Assembly: GCF_000091665.1 (NCBI RefSeq)
Contig: NC_000909.1
Location: 122,871-154,870, forward strand
DNA length: 32,000 bases
Source: Methanocaldococcus jannaschii DSM 2661
GTDB taxonomy: Archaea > AGJL01 > Methanococci > Methanococcales > Methanocaldococcaceae
Reading direction: 5' to 3'
Shown here: positions 2,308 through 32,000 of the stretch, piece by piece
How the letters are laid out: every line of letters starts with the position of its first letter
How positions within the stretch are numbered: the first letter of the stretch is position 1
Program-made: the position numbers and the translations under genes
The notes under the pieces: generated by a model
Told to the model about the DNA's origin: nothing
The model's input: the letters and a program-made list of their open reading frames with translations, nothing else
The model's database searches: none

Positions 2308-3584
2308 CTAAGTTTTTACTCTAACTTTTCCAGTTAATAATAACTCCATAATTTTCTTTTTCATTCTTTGTAGTTTTTCTTTCTTTTGTTTTTTCAATTC
2401 TATGCTTTTATCTACTGAACTTAATATTTTAGCTATTTGTTTTTGCTCTTCTAAAGGAGGGAGAGGGATTTTAAAGTTTTCAAGCATAGATTTTGATAAT
2501 TCTTTAAAAGTGCTTCCCCCACTTAGATTTTCAAGTAAATTTTTTTTAAACTTTAAATAATAAGCATAAAATTCAGTATTAACCGAATCGTTATTTTTTG
2601 GAATAATCCCTTGCAACCTTGATTAAATGTAGATTCTACAGTTAAAACTGCAACATACCCAACTGGTGCTCTTGTTGATATAATAATTGAACCTTTTGGA
2701 ATTAAATTTAAGTTACACTTTTCTAATGCTATTTTTGTTACTTTTCTTTCACTACTTCCAATATAGATTTTTTCATTTAACCTGCTTAAATCCAATGGTG
2801 TTATCCAATTTATTTCTCCATTTTCCCAATATTCTGATTTTTTAGTTGATGGGGTAGTTCCCGTTTTTACTTCAAATATATCTTTAATCTCAAAAACTTC
2901 CCAATCCTCTGGAATCTCCCCAATCTCAGATTTTTTAAATCTACTATGCCCTATTCCCTTAGTTAATAATTTATGCATTAAACCCTTTTTAATCCTCTCC
3001 AATTTATTAATTGATTTCTCAATAATCTCAATACCTTCATCAATTTTAGTTAAAATTTTAGCTATTTGTTTTTGCTCTTCTAATGGAGGGAGAGGGATTT
3101 TAAAACTTTTTACTATTTGAGCATTCAAATTTTTCTGTGTTGTTTGCATTCCTAACTTAGAGTAATAATTTTTATTTTTAGCTAAAATATAATACAAAAA
3201 TTCACTTTCTAAAATATTATCTTTTGGTATTATCCCTAAAATTGCTTGATTTGTGGCTACTTCTATTTTATTTATTGCTGTTTCTCCAATACTTCCATAC
3301 ATAGCAAATAATACAGAATTTTTCGGAACTATCCACGCATTGGAATTATTTAAACCTTCTTCAGTTATTTTTATTTTTGTATTGGTTAAATATTTATTTG
3401 AATTGGTTATATCTTCAATTTTAACAAATGGAATAGTCCCATTTTTATAATATTCTTCTACACTGGTTTTTGGTGTTCCTCCTGCTTTTATTTTTTTACA
3501 AACATCCTTTAGCTCAACAATCTCCCAATCCTCTGGAATCTCTCCAATCTCTGTTTTTTTAAAATTCTCTTCTTTATAGAACAT
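2308..3584 (-). pseudogene. hsdS: Type I R-M specificity subunit HsdS, split by a 1-nt frameshift near 2611-2622 (as sequenced)
   Basis: Two target-recognition domains. The conserved spacer [18 protein letters not shown] occurs twice (about 50-bp direct repeat, 2427-2480 and 3056-3109). ORF 2553..3584 ends ...[10 protein letters not shown] in the wrong frame. ORF 2308..2616 resumes with QGIIPKNN, which parallels [12 protein letters not shown] of TRD1. Adding one T to GGTT would give [12 protein letters not shown] in frame. Confidence 0.85.
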
Positions 3585-6555: not shown

Positions 6556-6631
6556 TTTCTTTCTTATCCTCTTTTTCTTCTTTATCTAAAGGCTTAGGGG
6601 GGACTCTTGCAACCGTTATATATCCAGCCAT
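6548..6631 (-). pseudogene. Displaced duplicate of the trmI 3' coding end (reads MAGYITVARVPPKPLDKEEKEDKKENE*)
   Basis: Hand-translated. Aligns codon for codon with the trmI C-terminus GYITVARVPPEPLDREEEKE. Its stop, TAG 6548-6550, overlaps the start of the downstream gene (ATG 6555-6553). Confidence 0.7.
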
Positions 6632-6684: not shown

Positions 6685-6693
6685 AAATTATTT

Positions 6694-7542
6694 TTATTCT
6701 TTCTCTTCTTCTCTATCTAAAGGCTCTGGTGGAACTCTCGCGACAGTTATGTATCCAGTATGTCCAATCATCCTTGTTGATGGCCTAACACCTTTTTCAG
6801 AGATTTCAATCTCTCTCTCAATAATCTCATAGGTGTGGATATCCCAAAATCCTTCCTCTTTAAGCTTCTCTACAGTTTTTTTAACTTGCTCTATGTATGG
6901 GAGATAAGTAACTATTCTCCCCCTCTTTTTGTTTAAAGCCTTTTTTGCATTCTCTACAACATTCCAGGGGTCTGGTAAATCTAAGACAATAACATCAACA
7001 TCCTTCTCATCTATCTTCTCCCTAACATCTCCAATTTTTTGTATGACATTGAATAATCCATCTTCAATTTCAATCTCATCCTCATCATCAAACTCTTCAT
7101 CTAAACCAATAATTTTTTGCCCTTTTTTAATAGCTCCAACTCTCAACAGATTTTTCCTTGCAACTTTGGCAAATTCTGGCCTTATATCATAAGTAATAAC
7201 TTTCCCTGTCTTACCAACAGCATTTGATAGATACATAGTTAAAGCTCCAGAGCCAGTTCCAGCTTCAACTACTGTCTCTCCCTCTCTAATTCCAGCTCTT
7301 GCTATAATAAACCCAATATCTTTTGGTAATAGGGTTGTTACTGTCCTCTTCATTCTCTTTAAGATATCAAACATTGTAGGTTCAACCAAATAGAAAGTAT
7401 GTCCTTTGTGGGATTTTAACTCAACTCCTTCCTCAATATCCTTCATATCTACAATTCCCAAATCTGTTCCAAACTTCTCAACATTCTTTTTTAACAAATA
7501 TCTCTTCCCTCTCTCATCCACTAACAATTTATAAGCAAACAT
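6694..7542 (-). CDS. trmI: tRNA (adenine-N1)-methyltransferase TrmI/Gcd14 family
   Basis: 282 aa. SAM motif VVEAGTGSGALTMYL, DLPDPW catalytic-region motif, and an acidic insertion DEEFDDEDEIEIED. Confidence 0.8.
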   Translation of the reverse strand: MFAYKLLVDERGKRYLLKKNVEKFGTDLGIVDMKDIEEGVELKSHKGHTFYLVEPTMFDILKRMKRTVTTLLPKDIGFIIARAGIREGETVVEAGTGSGALTMYLSNAVGKTGKVITYDIRPEFAKVARKNLLRVGAIKKGQKIIGLDEEFDDEDEIEIEDGLFNVIQKIGDVREKIDEKDVDVIVLDLPDPWNVVENAKKALNKKRGRIVTYLPYIEQVKKTVEKLKEEGFWDIHTYEIIEREIEISEKGVRPSTRMIGHTGYITVARVPPEPLDREEEKE

Positions 7543-8239: not shown

Positions 8240-8290
8240 AATTGCACCTCTTTTTTAAAACGAAATCTAAAAGTATTACATAGCTAAATT

Positions 8291-8358
8291 GGACATTAAT
8301 TGGGGCTGAAAGCCCCAACTTAATGGACGTCGGGTATCCCAATAGGGCGGAGCCCTAT
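8291..8358. repeat. GC-rich palindromic element, copy B (inverted relative to copies A and C, with a different second hairpin)
   Basis: Extended hairpin CATTAATTGGGGC-TGAAA-GCCCCAACTTAATG (8294-8325), then GGGTATCCCA, then ATAGGGC-GGA-GCCCTAT (8342-8358). Positions 8291-8322 are an exact inverted copy of 20803-20834. Confidence 0.75.
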
Positions 8359-8473
8359 GGATAGGAAATGCATTTCTGCTCATAAGTTTATCTCTATATA
8401 ATAATTTCTACTTAGTTTAAGCAGTAAGCATTTTATATGCTTTTTTAAAGAATATTAAAATACTACAAAAACC

Positions 8474-10051: not shown

Positions 10052-11130
10052 ATTAAAATCAGACCGTTTCGGAATGGAAATCAGGGAGGTAGGAGGGAGG
10101 TTCTCCTTGGATTTCTATTAAAATCAGACCGTTTCGGAATGGAAATCTATTAAGTCCCATGCAGACCTACCAATACGTTCATAGTAAGGCCTAATTAAAA
10201 TCAGACCGTTTCGGAATGGAAATTATGTTACAAAAGTTGGAGAGGAAGATTTAAAACTTGATTAAAATCAGACCGTTTCGGAATGGAAATTTAATTCTAA
10301 TGCCTTGTTTTTTACATCTTCTGGAAATTAAAATCAGACCGTTTCGGAATGGAAATGTCTTTAATTTCATCTCTATAGCTTCTTCTATTGCTTTAAATTA
10401 AAATCAGACCGTTTCGGAATGGAAATAATGTAAATTTAAAAATATAACGTTGCAAATAAGGAATTAAAATCAGACCGTTTCGGAATGGAAATCAGTAGTT
10501 AAAACTTAAAGCACAAAACACCTTCATTCCATTAAAATCAGACCGTTTCGGAATGGAAATGAAGTATTTTTATCTTTTGCGATATTTTCTATAATCTCAT
10601 CAATTAAAATCAGACCGTTTCGGAATGGAAATTATTTTTGTTGTTTAAATCTATTGTGTATAATGTGGTAATTAAAATCAGACCGTTTCGGAATGGAAAC
10701 TTTTTGCTTCATTTTCATTTAAATTAACTATAAAACAGTAATTAAAATCAGACCGTTTCGGAATGGAAACATGGAGCAAAACAACATATTGTTTTAATAG
10801 TGGATGATTTTTAATTAAAATCAGACCGTTTCGGAATGGAAACGCATTACAGAATTTATATTATTTATATACTGTTTATGATTAAAATCAGACCGTTTCG
10901 GAATGGAAACAAAACACCACCTTCAATAAACTTATCAATTTGATATTTATTAAAATCAGACCGATTCGGAATGGAAATTGTATTAATTCCAGTTGTAATA
11001 TTTGATAATGAGACATTAAAATCAGATTAAAATCAGACCGTTTCGGAATGGAAACTTTATCTAATTTAACCCGCTTATGGTTTTAGATGAACCCCGCTCC
11101 ATTAAAATCAGACCGATTCGGAATGTGAAA
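10052..11130 (+). CRISPR. CRISPR array: 16 repeats of 30 bp and 15 spacers of 35-47 bp
   Basis: Repeat starts: 10052, 10117, 10194, 10261, 10327, 10397, 10463, 10531, 10603, 10671, 10741, 10814, 10881, 10949, 11026, 11101. Consensus ATTAAAATCAGACCGTTTCGGAATGGAAAT. Repeats 10-13 and 15 end in C. Repeats 14 and 16 carry CCGATTC. Repeat 16 is further degenerate (GAATGTGAAA). All spacers are unique. Confidence 0.97.
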
Positions 11131-11243
11131 ATCCCTTAGCTTTTTTTATATTGTCTTATTAATAGGATAGAAATCTGTAAAAATAGAGTTATTTAGATTT
11201 AATGATAATTGCAACATAAAAAAGTATAATGTAATTAATTATT

Positions 11244-12123: not shown

Positions 12124-12172
12124 TTAGATTATCTTTCTCATCCAATTATCTAACCTCTCTAAAAAGTTATCT
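12124..12172 (-). pseudogene. Displaced original 3' end of the CobQ-like gene (reads ...[15 protein letters not shown])
   Basis: Positions 12139-12172 are 34/34 identical to 12267-12300, inside the intact gene. Hand-translation continues in frame to a stop at 12124-12126. Confidence 0.7.
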
Positions 12173-12266
12173 CCCCATAGGGCTATCGCCCTATTGGTAT
12201 ACCCGGGATGCATTGCCTCGCTTACGCTCGGCAATGCCTCTTAAATTAATATTTATTAATATTTTC
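12173..12266. repeat. GC-rich bipartite palindromic element, copy C (94-bp insert bounded by 34-bp direct repeats)
   Basis: Hairpin 1 is ATAGGGC-TATC-GCCCTAT (12177-12194). The linker is TGGTATACCC. Hairpin 2 is GCATTGCC (12210-12217), loop TCGCTTACGCTC, GGCAATGC (12230-12237). The AT-rich tail 12246-12266 encodes the C-terminus now in use, ENINKY*. Confidence 0.8.
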
Positions 12267-13694
12267 CATCCAATTATCTAACCTCTCTAAAAAGTTATCT
12301 TCCTCATCCTTTATATGATTATTTATTTCAACCTCTGGGATTTCTATTTCTAAATCAACATTAAAGGCATTTCTGCAGAAGCTTTCATAATCAATCTCTA
12401 CTTCTGGAATTAGTCCCCTACTCTCATTAGCTATTTTTCCAACTCCATAGAGCTTTATGTTATGTTTTTCAGCCAAACTTTTTAATTTATTGAAAGAGTT
12501 CCAATCATAGACTTTATTTAAAATTACTCCTTCAACTTTAATCCCAATATCTTTGAGTAGGCTGTAATAAGCCATTGCCTCTACAAAAGCTCCCTCTATC
12601 CCACTTATATTGCAAGCACTTACTATATAAACTGGAAATCCAAGCTTTTTGGCTATTTGATAAGAGGAAATATTTTTTAATGCTGCAGTAAAAGCTCCCA
12701 TAACCCCTTCAACAATTATGTAATCATAATCTGACTTTTTTATATAATCTAAAAATTTAGAAACATCAACCCATCCTCTCTCTCCAATCTTTATGCTGTT
12801 GTATTTTGTCATCTTCTCTCTCAATAAATAAAGAGCTGGCACTATATCCCTAACATCCCCGCCAATCTTAGCAACAAAAACTCTTCCATTTAATTTTGAT
12901 GATAAAGCAGTTGTTAAAAACGTCTTTCCACTGTTTGATGATGTTGCCAATAAAATAATCCCTCTTTTTTTATTAACATCTTTTTTATTATTCTCTTTTA
13001 GTAATTTTGGGTTTAATCTATATTTTAAAGCCCTCTTTTTTAATTCATCTTTTATAATCTTATTTTTTTCAAATATTTCCTCTTTCTCATCCTCTGTAAC
13101 TCCCAAATGTTTTAAAAAATTGTCTCTGACAAATTCATTATCTAAGAAGTTATGAACCATTGTTCCAAACACTTTTCCTTTAAAAGCTCCAGAGATAATT
13201 TCTTTTTCAGCTCCAAGTTTATAATTTAGCTTTTTTACTTTTGAAACTGTTAGAATTTTAGTTTCTTTATCAACTACCTCAATATTTCCATAAGTATGGC
13301 AGTGAAACCCTTCTCCCTTTCCCTCTCCAAATATTGATTTTTTTACTTCAAATTCTACTCTATCTGTGCAAACTAATGGAGAAAACTCAACATCCAACAA
13401 ACCTAAGCCCTCTTTAATTATTGGAACGCTGCTTTTTCTTCCAATGTCTATCTTTTTAGCTAATATCTGAAAACCACTGCAAATGCCAATTATATACCCA
13501 TTAAAGTTAATTATTTCTTTTTTTAAATCATCATTTAATGATTTACTTTCAATTAAACTTCCTCCAGGTATTATCAAAGCATCTAAATCTTTAATTTCTT
13601 TATAATTATTTTCAGTTATAATCTTTGTTGGTAGATTGCCGAAATCTTCAAATAATGGAAGAGACCCCTTAATATCCAAAATACCAATTTCCAT
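12246..13694 (-). CDS. CobQ/CobB-like glutamine amidotransferase with permuted domain order (GATase N-terminal, DTBS/CobQ-type P-loop C-terminal)
   Basis: 482 aa. The N-terminal half has IIPGGS, GICSGFQ (nucleophile Cys) and HNFLDNE, as in the CobB/CobQ GATase domain. The C-terminal half has ATSSNSGKT (P-loop) and VEGVMG. Confidence 0.6.
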
Positions 13695-20251: not shown

Positions 20252-20349
20252 AATAGAACTTTCGCAGTTTTATACTACTAATTAAGGAACATTGATGCCA
20301 AAAGGCATCTTTGTGCAATAATAAATTTTATTCCTGCGAAAGTTCTATT
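20252..20349. repeat. Long-stem palindromic element; one arm is the last codons of the ferredoxin gene
   Basis: AATAGAACTTTCGCAG (20252-20267) pairs perfectly with CTGCGAAAGTTCTATT (20334-20349). The central hairpin is GATGCC-AAAA-GGCATC (20294-20309). Confidence 0.65.
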
Positions 20350-20537
20350 GATATAGCTTGGTCTGGGCATTGTAATATACAGAGATTGCACTTTGTGCAT
20401 TTTTCAGGATTTACTGGGATTGGTGGGTAGATACCTTTTTTATTCAACTTTTTTGATTTCTCAAATACTCCTCTTGGACATACTACAATACATATATCAC
20501 ATCCCTTACAGAAGTTTTCATTTATTTCTATCTTCAT
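20328..20537 (-). CDS. 2x[4Fe-4S] ferredoxin
   Basis: 69 aa. Motifs CKGCDICIVVCP and CTKCNLCILQCP. Confidence 0.85.
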   Translation of the reverse strand: MKIEINENFCKGCDICIVVCPRGVFEKSKKLNKKGIYPPIPVNPEKCTKCNLCILQCPDQAISIELSQE

Positions 20538-20566
20538 TATTATCCCTCCAAGTAGTTTTTGATGTG

Positions 20567-20620
20567 TTATAACACTCTTTTTATAGCATTCCAGATTAAA
20601 AAACTCTGTGGTTTTAAAAG
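20567..20620 (-). pseudogene. Displaced duplicate of the ATPase 3' coding end (reads ...[17 protein letters not shown])
   Basis: Hand-translated. Aligns with the C-terminus in use, [20 protein letters not shown]. Differences are mostly synonymous, including TCA versus AGT for Ser. Confidence 0.65.
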
Positions 20621-20640
20621 AAACTTTTAGTAAAAGTTGA

Positions 20641-20699
20641 ACAAAAACTCTTCGAGTTTTTGTAGCCCGAAGCTAACGCTTCGGTTTCATCAAAACTCG
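20641..20699. repeat. Nested palindromes: ACAAAAACTC-TTC-GAGTTTTTGT, CCGAAGC-TAAC-GCTTCGG, and an outer CGAGTTTT...AAAACTCG
   Basis: Read directly from the sequence: 10-bp stem at 20641-20663; 7-bp stem at 20667-20684; an 8-bp outer pairing of 20653-20660 with 20692-20699. Confidence 0.6.
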
Positions 20700-20705
20700 T
20701 CCATT

Positions 20706-20802
20706 TAACCAATTATCAAAGTTTTTAATTAAATAAGGCACATATAGAAGCCCTTTGGGCTTCTAAATTCCATAGTAAATAATATCCTTTGATAATTGGT
20801 TA
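20706..20802. repeat. Long-stem palindromic element: 16-bp outer inverted repeat plus a central 8-bp GC hairpin
   Basis: TAACCAATTATCAAAG (20706-20721) pairs with CTTTGATAATTGGTTA (20787-20802). The centre is AGAAGCCC-TTT-GGGCTTCT (20746-20764). The interior resembles 8490-8566 in reverse orientation (shared TGCCTTAT, ATG-AATTT-GAA). Confidence 0.7.
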
Positions 20803-20834
20803 TAAGTTGGGGCTTTCAGCCCCAATTAATGTCC
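20803..20834. repeat. GGGGC-hairpin repeat, an exact inverted copy of 8291-8322; supplies the last two codons and stop of the ATPase gene
   Basis: TAAGTTGGGGCTTTCAGCCCCAATTAATGTCC is identical over 32 nt to the reverse complement of 8291-8322. On the minus strand, GGA CAT TAA gives G H stop. Confidence 0.8.
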
Positions 20835-21941
20835 ATTCAGTAATTTCTTTATAGCATTCCAGATTAAAAATGATTGTGGTTTTAAAATTCCTTCAATAGG
20901 ATTTAGGAATAAAATATTTTTCTTAACTAAATAAATATAAACTGGTTCTGGTATATCATCATCACTAACTTCATAATTTTCTTTAAATAATTTTAACGCA
21001 TTTATAATATCATCCTTTTTAATCTCAATGATTTCATCTTTAAGTTCTACTTTTGGTTTTATATAATCCAACTCCTTTAAAAAATACTTTAGTTTTTGAG
21101 TTTCTTCTTTAAGCATTAAATTTAGAATATCTTCTAACTTCCTATACCTCATCTCATCAATCACACTGTAGATATATACCGGTTTTCCTCCTACATAGTT
21201 ATAGATTAACTCTTTATCTTCATCAGAGAGTTTTTTATTTAAAATCTCTTTAGCCAAGAAATCCATAAATTTTAAAGCTGTCTCTTTATCAAAGTCATCC
21301 ACTAAGAGGTATTTGGCTCTACCTTCCAACTCTCCAGCACTATAAACATATTCAATAAATAAGCTATCAGAACTTAGACAAAAAACATGGCATAGATGTT
21401 GTTCTTTAGTTAAAGAAACTAAAAACTGAAACAACTCTTTTAACAAGTATTTTTGCCAATTTAAAACTACATCTTTAATCATCTGAAGTTCATCAAGTAT
21501 TAACACTGGCTGTTTTCCACTCTTTTTAACCTCTAATAGTATAGAGTTTAAGTATTGGAAGGCATCATTTATTTTCTCTTCAAATAATTTATCAAACTCT
21601 ACTTCAGGTATTGGAATACCAGTTAAAATCTTAGCCCCTTTTGTTATCAAATTTAAAACTTCTGATTTATCTTTTATTTTTTCAAAGAAATCATCTTTTT
21701 TAGTGGTAAAGATAGCTTCAATAAATTCCCTCTTTTCTGAAATTAAATAAGTCCTAAAATTAATATAAAAAACCTTATAATCATCACTTAGTTTGTTTTC
21801 AATGATGTGTTTTATTAGAGCAGTTTTACCAGAATTTAAAGGGCCGTAGATGAAATAAATTATATTTGGTTCTCCCTCTAAGATTGATAGAATTTCATGA
21901 ATTTCTTTTTCTCTATTGAAGAATTTCATTTGAATCACCAT
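20826..21941 (-). CDS. Archaeal ATPase family protein (P-loop NTPase, Arch_ATPase/DUF234-type)
   Basis: Walker [12 protein letters not shown] and Walker B LILDELQ. The likely start is ATG 21929 ([10 protein letters not shown]), with GGTGA 5 nt upstream. Confidence 0.75.
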
Positions 21942-21947
21942 TTCAAT

Positions 21948-22958
21948 TTACTTCTTCCTCTTCCACATCCTTGGATAAGTCCCTCTATCCATATAAACTC
22001 TCTCAACATCAACAGCAACTCCTTTATCTGCATTTAAAATCTCTTTTGTGTTCATTAAAGCCTTTCCTACAGCTACAGCTTCCCCTTTCAAAGTCTCAAC
22101 TAAGACAGTCTCTCCTTTACCAATGCCTTTACTCAACTTAGCTATTCCTCTAACATAGACATCTGCTCCATGGCAGATAGCATCAACAGCACTATCCTTA
22201 ACAACAACCTTCTTCAAATGCCTTAACCCATACTCCATTGGCTTTATAACTCTCCTTAACTCTTCTTCATCCCCATCCTCCTTCCAAAATACATAAGCAT
22301 CAAGCAAATCTTGTAAATAAACAGCATCCTTCTCCTCAAAACATCCACTTTTAGTCCTTCTTAGCTCTTGCATGTGGGCAGATGTTCCTAACGCTTCCCC
22401 AATATCTTCACACAATTTCCTTATATAAGTCCCAGATTGACATTTAACCCTAAATAAAACATCCTTACCATCTTTGTCTAATAACTCTAATTCATGAATC
22501 TTCCTAATTCTCAATCTTCTTTTAACAGCTGCTTTTAATGGAGGTCTCTGATAAATCCTTCCAGTAAATTCTTTAAAAACTCTCAATATATCTTCTTCAG
22601 ACGCATCTCTATGTAGATGCATCAAACAAACATACTCCTTAGGTGGAATGTGCCACATTGGTATTGTTTTTGTAGCTCTCTCTAAAGCCACTGGCAAAAC
22701 ACCAGTAACCTTTGGGTCTAATGTCCCACCATGTCCAGCTTTATCTAAATTTAAAATCTTTTTAACCCATGTTGAAACCTCATGAGACGTTGGACCTCTT
22801 GGTTTATCAACTACAACAACACCGTACTTTATCAAATCCTCTATCTTTCTTTCATAAGGGTTGCAGCCATAATCCCAATTTGTTTCAACCTCTTCCTTAA
22901 CTATAAGCTCCTCTTTGTCATTTATCTTTTTTTCCTGTGTTTTTTCCAATAAAATCAC
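21948..22958 (-). CDS. truB: tRNA/rRNA pseudouridine synthase Cbf5 (TruB family) with a C-terminal PUA domain
   Basis: 336 aa. VVVDKPRGPTSHEV and GHGGTLDPKVTG (catalytic Asp) motifs. GTG start. Confidence 0.9.
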   Translation of the reverse strand: MILLEKTQEKKINDKEELIVKEEVETNWDYGCNPYERKIEDLIKYGVVVVDKPRGPTSHEVSTWVKKILNLDKAGHGGTLDPKVTGVLPVALERATKTIPMWHIPPKEYVCLMHLHRDASEEDILRVFKEFTGRIYQRPPLKAAVKRRLRIRKIHELELLDKDGKDVLFRVKCQSGTYIRKLCEDIGEALGTSAHMQELRRTKSGCFEEKDAVYLQDLLDAYVFWKEDGDEEELRRVIKPMEYGLRHLKKVVVKDSAVDAICHGADVYVRGIAKLSKGIGKGETVLVETLKGEAVAVGKALMNTKEILNADKGVAVDVERVYMDRGTYPRMWKRKK

Positions 22959-31774: not shown

Positions 31775-32000
31775 TGGATACCCTGCCGGGCCCTTGGGCG
31801 ATTAGTACCGGCGGGCTGAACGCCTCGGGCAAAGCCCTCGGCGCTTACACCCCCGGCCTATCAACCTCCTCTTATAGGAGAGCCCTCGTCCCCGAAGGAC
31901 TGGCCGCCTATTTTCGGGGAGGGTTTCGGGCTTAGATGCCTTCAGCCCTTATCCCTTAGCGCGTAGCTGCCCGGCAATGCCCTGTCGGACAACCGGTAGA
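31775..32000 (-). rRNA. 23S rRNA, 3'-terminal part (the gene continues beyond the window end)
   Basis: The plus strand reads ATTAGTACCGG...GCGCTTACACCCCCGGCCTATCAACC...GGGCTTAGATGCCTTCAGC. This is the reverse complement of the universally conserved 3' domain of 23S rRNA. There is an abrupt shift to high GC. The 3' boundary is approximate (about +/-20 nt). GC-rich 31741-31774 probably belongs to the processing stem. Confidence 0.9.

Follow-up and report, generated by a model that had tools for sequence, protein, structure and literature searches.

The ATPase gene at positions 20826-21941 of the window, which is the whole stretch of 32,000 nucleotides (nt) of Methanocaldococcus jannaschii DSM 2661 analysed here (contig NC_000909.1), is followed by a second copy of its own 3'-end, and a block of hairpins stands between the two copies. 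Besides the ATPase, at least six loci in five genomes have the same layout, gene end - hairpin block - gene end, the duplications being about 23-71 nt long. This recurrence at other Methanocaldococcus genes is the main result beyond the observation at the ATPase. Regarding the origin of the duplication, the explanation we prefer, with modest confidence, is that the hairpin block was inserted within a target duplication of about 50 nt and that the resulting cassette was afterwards exchanged between ATPase paralogues. Positions are those of the window unless a contig is named, and numbers beginning with L are our own handles for the contigs used in the comparison.

Two copies of the ATPase gene end and the block between them

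The ATPase gene is on the minus strand and encodes 371 aa, with a Pfam ATPase_2 domain and an MJ1010-like C-terminal domain. A direct repeat of 40 nt, 20580-20619 against 20848-20887, is identical at 36/40 positions with a spacing of 268 nt (blastn E = 2e-9 within 700 nt). It forms the core of two copies of the gene end, both of 17 residues and on the minus strand: copy 1 (20838-20888, with the core at 20848-20887) belongs to the gene in use, whereas copy 2 (20567-20620, stop at 20567-20569) is the displaced one. The four mismatches in the core are all adjacent and change CAA-TCA into CAG-AGT, and the identical core of both copies comprises 23 nt (TTTTTAATCTGGAATGCTATAAA). Among the further codon differences, aag/aaa and ctg/tta are synonymous, and the three replacements, att/ctt (I/L), aaa/aga (K/R) and tta/gtg (L/V), are all conservative; the Nei-Gojobori counts over the 17 aligned codons were Sd 5.8 and Nd 5.2, that is, proportions of synonymous and non-synonymous differences (pS and pN) of 0.57 and 0.13. 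The duplication had already been described in an initial annotation of this DNA, and its two translations, its displaced stop and the codon differences it listed (caa/cag, tca/agt, aag/aaa, ctg/tta) are all found here. The length of 217 bp that it gave to the block has to be corrected, since the gap from the stop in use (20826) to the start of the displaced copy (20620) is 205 nt.

The tails of the two copies differ at 6-7 of 12 nt: the tail in use reads KKLLNGH* and the displaced tail KRVL*. All 16 paralogue ends from other Methanocaldococcus genomes (16/16) stop three codons sooner (...WNAIKxxL*), therefore the displaced copy keeps the canonical length of the family, and it is the copy in use that has been altered. 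In the gene in use, N-G-H-stop occupy 20826-20837 on the minus strand, and G-H-stop fall within a hairpin module of 33 bp, u3 (20803-20835, minus strand). This unit, inside which TGGACATTAA lies, is repeated perfectly at 8290-8322, and thus G-H-stop of the gene belong to the element. The proposal of the initial annotation that the last palindromic unit supplies them is therefore correct.

The block itself (20621-20825) is a mosaic of repeated hairpin modules. The stretch of 225 nt that contains it (20616-20840) folds with -76 kcal/mol against -42 for its shuffles (z = -8.0). Four modules follow one another along the block. A small hairpin, AACTTTTACTAAAAGTT, is seen in the fold at 20622-20638 (minus strand), next to the block edge at 20621. 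The nested module u1 (20643-20705, minus strand) reads GAGUUUUGAUGAAA - CCGAAGC GUUA GCUUCGG - GCUACAAAAACUC and overlaps the palindrome AAAAACTCGAAGAGTTTTT. Then comes a unit of 97 bp (20706-20802, with no strand assigned) resembling a transposable element of the miniature inverted-repeat kind (MITE), and finally u3, with its stem at 20807-20814 / 20818-20825 and the hairpin TTGGGGCT-GAA-AGCCCCAA (20807-20825). The second copy of u3, followed by the hairpin GGGTATCCCAATAGGG, lies on the plus strand at 8290-8362, in the intergenic region of the RNase HII and PurP genes. Self-comparison and folding thus support the palindromic units of the initial annotation, to which the small hairpin has to be added. 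Regarding the right edge of the block, four unitigs (k = 31) start exactly 30 nt before the boundary between block and copy 2. A start of this kind marks a branch at which two copies of the block in one genome diverge (AAAAGTTTC|T against |G). These start points, together with the divergence between the block copies at the ATPase locus and at the alaS locus described below, place the right edge at 20621.

The 97-bp unit has perfect terminal inverted repeats (TIRs) of 16 bp (16/16, TAACCAATTATCAAAG), an inner hairpin at 20745-20765, arms of 33 nt that are 79% complementary, and no open reading frame (ORF). Both a variant on contig L044 and the copy at 8290 lack it and have the uninterrupted empty site CCCCAACTTAATGGA, so it is a true insertion into the composite. 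TA or TTA could be its target duplication, the exact call being blurred by a discrepancy of 1 nt at the junctions. The four filled copies (window, L040, L014 and L021) all have the unit at the same position of the same composite, and a search with the TIR pattern, allowing up to 2 mismatches, gave no further copy in about 242 kb. No transposase carrying these repeats turned up in about 340 kb of Methanocaldococcus DNA. Rfam 15 at a permissive threshold gave nothing credible, the best matches reaching 14-21 bits against thresholds of 37-130. In viral contigs, one hairpin motif had 9 chance matches without the complementary arm and the other motif had none.

Copies of the composite were found at three other loci: in strain FS406-22 (L014), downstream of a permease gene and about 85% identical; in M. 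bathoardescens (L021), 88% identical; and between alaS and a C5-methylase gene (L040:2549-2976), 98.6% identical. The last one is flanked by a repeat of 11 nt, GGTGAGAATAT. A long duplication at this block was also considered and is unsupported, because past these 11 nt the similarity is no better than in shuffles. Furthermore, in L040 a piece of 140 nt from the beginning of the methylase gene is followed by the final 11 nt of the displaced ATPase end and then by the ferredoxin gene, which could be either a rearrangement or an assembly artefact. L039, L040 and L044 (L044:1-100) are short metagenome contigs, and the safe part of their junctions is within about one k-mer, which still covers the tail of the ATPase paralogue on L039 discussed below.

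As for the single modules, the type of u1 also occurs in tandem in L021 and in L002/L003. One module has the form GUUUUGAUGAAA-[hairpin]-GCUA(C/U)(A/G)AAAAC, delimited by GUUUUGAUGAAA and GCUACAAAAAC and with a box-C-like UGAUGA, and was seen at 20653-20699 of the window, at L021:4237-4420, at about L002:2090 and at about L003:510. In the double-hairpin elements found at other genes, hairpin A has tandem G.A mismatches around a GUAA loop. From their sequence, both look like possible kink-turn (L7Ae-binding) motifs, which would hint at a role at the RNA level.

The same layout at other genes

The search for the layout was a self-comparison of all the sequence collected up to then, followed by inspection. 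The self-comparison gave five pairs of direct repeats, of 28-120 nt, flanking a strongly folded insert. Two of the loci are in the window, both on the minus strand. The gene of a tRNA m1A methyltransferase has its end duplicated over 71 nt (6557-6627 / 6688-6758, 76% identity) around a double-hairpin element of 60 nt, and the first 10 codons of these copies show 7 synonymous and 0 non-synonymous changes. A CobQ-like gene has a duplication of 45 nt (12131-12175 / 12259-12303, 91%), also with a double-hairpin element between the copies. The CobQ-like gene of M. sp. 28A has a duplication of 48 nt at 98%, the methyltransferase gene of M. bathoardescens one of about 70 nt, a gene of M. fervens (L015:546-1148) one of 32 nt at 84% by blastn, or about 42 nt by eye, and TrpB on L018 one of about 38 nt. 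Finally, in the K-channel operon of 28A (L016:8998-9325), a duplication of 23 nt surrounds a block of about 300 nt. This block comprises at least six hairpin modules in both orientations, and parts two genes that abut in M. jannaschii; the 23 nt include both the gene 1 stop and the ribosome-binding site for gene 2.

Most of the inserts are double hairpins of about 60 nt, and orthologous copies keep their pairing by compensatory changes. Element-free orthologous sites were found as well: FS406-22 has none of the inserts at its CobQ and methyltransferase genes, and the K-channel genes of M. jannaschii follow each other directly. The element-free CobQ of FS406-22 ends in KKII*, which resembles the displaced RKII* of M. 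jannaschii and not the ENINKY* in use. Among 30 clusters of GC hairpins, the flanking repeats of 5 exceeded the 99th percentile of the random controls. The link between elements and duplicated gene ends, which the initial annotation had drawn from the ATPase, thus holds at other genes. Intergenic gaps in these genomes are typically of 12-16 nt. The layout recurs, and in such tightly packed genomes gene end - block - gene end would be the usual footprint of the insertion of a hairpin element.

Regarding the differences between the copies, the pooled pN/pS over six loci was 0.12 (21.8 synonymous against 10.2 non-synonymous differences), with the strongly diverged tails excluded as unalignable. 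These counts depart from what is expected if copy 1 is selected and copy 2 drifts neutrally (P = 3.6e-5). Displaced copies may themselves be under protein-level selection, and a reading in which they are still expressed as coding sequence, the element being removed or bypassed at the RNA or translation level, would account for this low ratio. It would also fit the displaced methyltransferase copies of M. jannaschii and M. bathoardescens, which differ mainly at third codon positions, and the conserved pairing of the hairpins. Nevertheless, the numbers are small, an import from functional alleles explains the pattern equally, and we know of no mechanism that fits such a bypass. Regarding removal from the RNA, a bulge-helix-bulge intron is put aside, because no such motif was seen by eye in the folds and the direct repeats cannot pair together; Rfam gave no match either. 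We therefore consider continued expression of the displaced copies very improbable.

Relatives at the ATPase locus and the origin of the differences

On the minus strand, the gene order around the ATPase is Cbf5 (21948-22958), ATPase, ferredoxin, GTP cyclohydrolase III and a Dus-like gene, the ferredoxin gene (20328-20537, minus strand, 69 aa) being known from the Pfam scan and the ORF listing. A close relative, L017, is collinear at 86-91% nt identity and has no ATPase at the syntenic site, where window positions 20552-21941 are matched by 112 unrelated bases (L017:2057-2168). In another relative, L025, the order is Cbf5, a cupin gene, a decayed 3' remnant of the ATPase and the ferredoxin gene, the slot being L025:6012-6670. 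The slot between Cbf5 and ferredoxin is therefore a hotspot of gene turnover, empty in L017, with cupin and remnant in L025 and with a full ATPase in the window. Such turnover, and the tandem ATPase paralogues present in L011 and L003, would suit a displaced copy that is the last remnant of a deleted tandem paralogue and has nothing to do with the hairpin block. However, the ferredoxin-side end of L025 runs upstream into the orthologue of the gene in use and not into a second gene, the homology of the displaced copy sets in right at the edge of the block and covers the same 50 nt or so as copy 1, and the layout recurs at single-copy genes. This origin is highly unlikely in our opinion.

The initial annotation had proposed to compare the locus in related strains. 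The single end of L025 is divided in its affinity. Its upstream part aligns with copy 1 (89.8% over 88 nt, with CAATCA), better than with any other paralogue end, and downstream it follows copy 2 in both tail and flank (AAA GTG CTA TAG ... ATCAAAAA ... GAGGGATAATAATG). Orthology to L025 also extends over the 45 nt upstream of copy 1. Furthermore, a paralogue on L039, which we call paralogue Y (363 aa, 69% nt identity to the ATPase gene), is identical from TGGAATGC through the tail AAGAAATTACTGAATGGACATTAA into the element and shares the tail of copy 1, AAGAAATTACTG. Taken together, the end of L025 and the tail of paralogue Y make each copy look chimeric, and the differences between them probably arose by ectopic recombination among paralogues. 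Both states of the Gln-Ser codons, CAATCA and CAGAGT, occur among the ATPase paralogues. The rest of the gene has a patchy affinity as well: the 5' half of the M. jannaschii ATPase is nearest to L002/L003a (81-89%), and its 3' part to L004/L003d (79-84% against 57-70%). By these comparisons, the ATPase family is a recombination mosaic.

These data bear on two other ways of explaining the differences. The first one is a plain target duplication followed by point mutation in place, with selection on copy 1 and drift on copy 2. The near-perfect duplications at the CobQ-like genes (47/48 in 28A, and a core identical at 33/33 in M. jannaschii) do indicate that fresh ones arise. Yet in the ATPase the four adjacent changes, in a 40-mer that is otherwise identical, hit exactly the alternative codon state of the paralogues, the tail that differs so much between the copies is identical to that of another paralogue, and the pooled counts reject a neutral drift of copy 2. 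For these reasons divergence in place is unlikely, though we give it somewhat more weight than the second explanation.

The second one is the strict form of the model in the initial annotation, in which the element, in the manner of a prophage, brought a whole replacement 3'-end from a long-diverged homologue and displaced the original end. The synonymous bias of the differences, the terminal codons supplied by the element and a displaced copy that is canonical in length and collinear with the ferredoxin flank are all in agreement with it. However, no integrase or recombinase was found near the block by Pfam scans, and the insert has just 205 nt and no ORF. The ferredoxin-side end of L025 has CAATCA, as in the copy in use and not as in the displaced one, and the sequence just upstream of copy 1 is orthologous to L025. 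In addition, unrelated genes each duplicate their own end, which fits repeats derived from the target and not a site-specific attachment site. A strict replacement is thus quite unlikely. What stands of the earlier proposal is that functional homologues contributed, since paralogues did so and both codon states are present in the family; the exchange appears to have been patchy instead of the import of a whole end. Nor do the two ends come cleanly from two long-diverged homologues, because L025 joins the CAATCA of the copy in use to a tail of the GTG type and a flank as in the displaced copy. The initial annotation had also held that ectopic exchange would weaken the element-linked model. Here such recombination is the likely source of the differences, while the link to the elements recurs at other genes.

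In the explanation we prefer, a mobile hairpin block would insert with a long target duplication, of variable length, of the 3'-end of a gene, which would spare the stop of the gene upstream and the start signals of the gene downstream. ATPase paralogues would then exchange the repeat-element-repeat cassette through homologous recombination, the crossovers falling in the 23-nt core. In copy 1 the left part (CAATCA) would be resident, and the tail, which lacks the canonical stop and reads N-G-H-stop into the element, would be imported; in copy 2 the left part (CAGAGT) would be imported, and the tail KRVL* with its flank would be resident. Judging by the comparison with relatives, the differences would be synonymous or conservative because both contributors were functional genes, and an exchange of this kind, here among alleles from different strains, would account for the synonymous bias that single-copy genes show. 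A broader version is doubtful, although we take it more seriously than the two explanations just discussed. It holds that the double-hairpin elements of about 60 nt and the larger mosaics insert with duplications of 11-70 nt and spread as half-repeat-element-half-repeat cassettes by host homologous recombination only. If true, this would be a movement without transposase, leaving chimeric gene ends that differ mainly at synonymous sites.

Several points weigh against the preferred explanation. The donor locus was not found, the search having left the rest of the M. jannaschii genome outside: the scan of genome contigs gave other species only, a single metagenome scan with the shared 23-mer gave a contig already among those compared, and plasmids gave nothing at the DNA or protein level. 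No paralogue was seen with a displaced copy carrying CAGAGT (start TTTTAAAACCACAGAGT). L025 is maybe a deletion chimera of two former copies and not a clean ancestor, and past its stop stands GGACATT, which is similar to the element's left end. The contigs L039, L040 and L044 are possibly mis-joined across the repeat. The lengths of the duplications vary widely (11-70 nt), and single-copy genes show the same synonymous bias, which would need an exchange of alleles between strains.

Regarding the surroundings of the locus, the ribosome-binding site of the ferredoxin gene (20543-20549) begins 18 nt past the displaced ATPase stop. We also considered whether the displaced copy is kept for a TATA box of this gene (GCTATAAAAAG); this is unsupported, as the distance to the start codon looks different, by eye, in L017, L025 and M. 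jannaschii. The Joint Genome Institute (JGI) contig L001 is identical over the ATPase region. Its Cbf5 gene (L001:1165-2164, against 21948-22958 in the window) matches in two frames, residues 1-288 and 290-336, and is called as 308 aa against 336 aa in the window, which points to an indel of one base or to an error in sequencing. The genes after Cbf5 are quite different in FS406-22 and strain 16A. Elsewhere in the window, a CRISPR array lies downstream of the PurP gene (10052-11131), with about 16-18 repeats (Rfam CRISPR-DR13), the final ones degenerate, and the end of the 23S rRNA gene is at 31782. Finally, 157-1491 and 2308-3584 contain long diverged direct repeats at a spacing of about 625-656 nt (300 nt at 70%, 176 nt at 77%, and 82 and 76 nt at 79-84%), which indicate tandemly duplicated small genes.

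Known systems and what the repeats may do

Prophage-type replacement of a 3'-end is known from e14 and phage 21 at icd of Escherichia coli and from integration into tRNA genes. As there, the end in use comes partly from inserted DNA, the native end is found downstream, and the differences are mostly synonymous. In our case there is no integrase, the inserts are of 60-300 nt and not of kilobases, and the exchange appears to proceed by host homologous recombination. At every locus it is the end of the local gene that is duplicated (ATPase, methyltransferase, CobQ-like, TrpB, K channel), so that no common attachment sequence exists. The likeness to repetitive extragenic palindromic (REP) sequences and bacterial interspersed mosaic elements (BIMEs) is in the mosaic of short GC-rich palindromic units just past genes, with modules reused in varied order and orientation, although the present modules are archaeal; no RAYT-type (IS200/IS605-like) transposase was identified, no search aimed at one having been made, and BIMEs are not known to be associated with duplications of 20-70 nt of the upstream gene end. 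The 97-bp unit is similar to MITEs in its perfect TIRs, its lack of an ORF, its TA-rich insertion point and its presence or absence between contigs. It differs from them in that all filled copies sit at one position of the same composite, and the other modules are without TIRs.

The nearest system by organism is that of the MJRE palindromic repetitive elements of M. jannaschii, which Suyama, Lathe and Bork reportedly divided into three groups in FEBS Lett in 2005. They are said to be small palindromic repeats, mostly intergenic, some of which give codons to host genes. That paper is not known to describe long gene-end duplications flanking the elements or chimeric copies. The likeness is in the organism group and in the contribution to a gene, here three codons and a stop. 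The MJRE elements are cited in passages of PMC2229807 and PMC2996958. A precedent for long target duplications of variable length is given by the insertion sequences IS1634 and IS1549, whose insertions have direct repeats of 8-514 bp with no accepted mechanism (PMC2266710). These are autonomous, with a DDE transposase and terminal repeats, whereas no transposase is associated with the elements described here.

The codon differences between the two ATPase end copies thus most likely come from recombination with sister genes. Palindromic repeats have been known in M. jannaschii since 2005, and the footprint described here, that is, long gene-end duplications, element-free orthologous sites and chimeric copies, provides a handle on how they move. 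This is worth taking into account in annotation, because short orphan fragments of gene ends next to GC-rich hairpins in AT-rich archaeal genomes can be recognised as insertion footprints and not as decayed genes. Furthermore, the elements remodel the C-termini of genes, as in the ATPase, to which the element adds three residues and another stop. As portable homology, the repeat blocks seem to shuffle the expanded ATPase family and possibly neighbouring genes.

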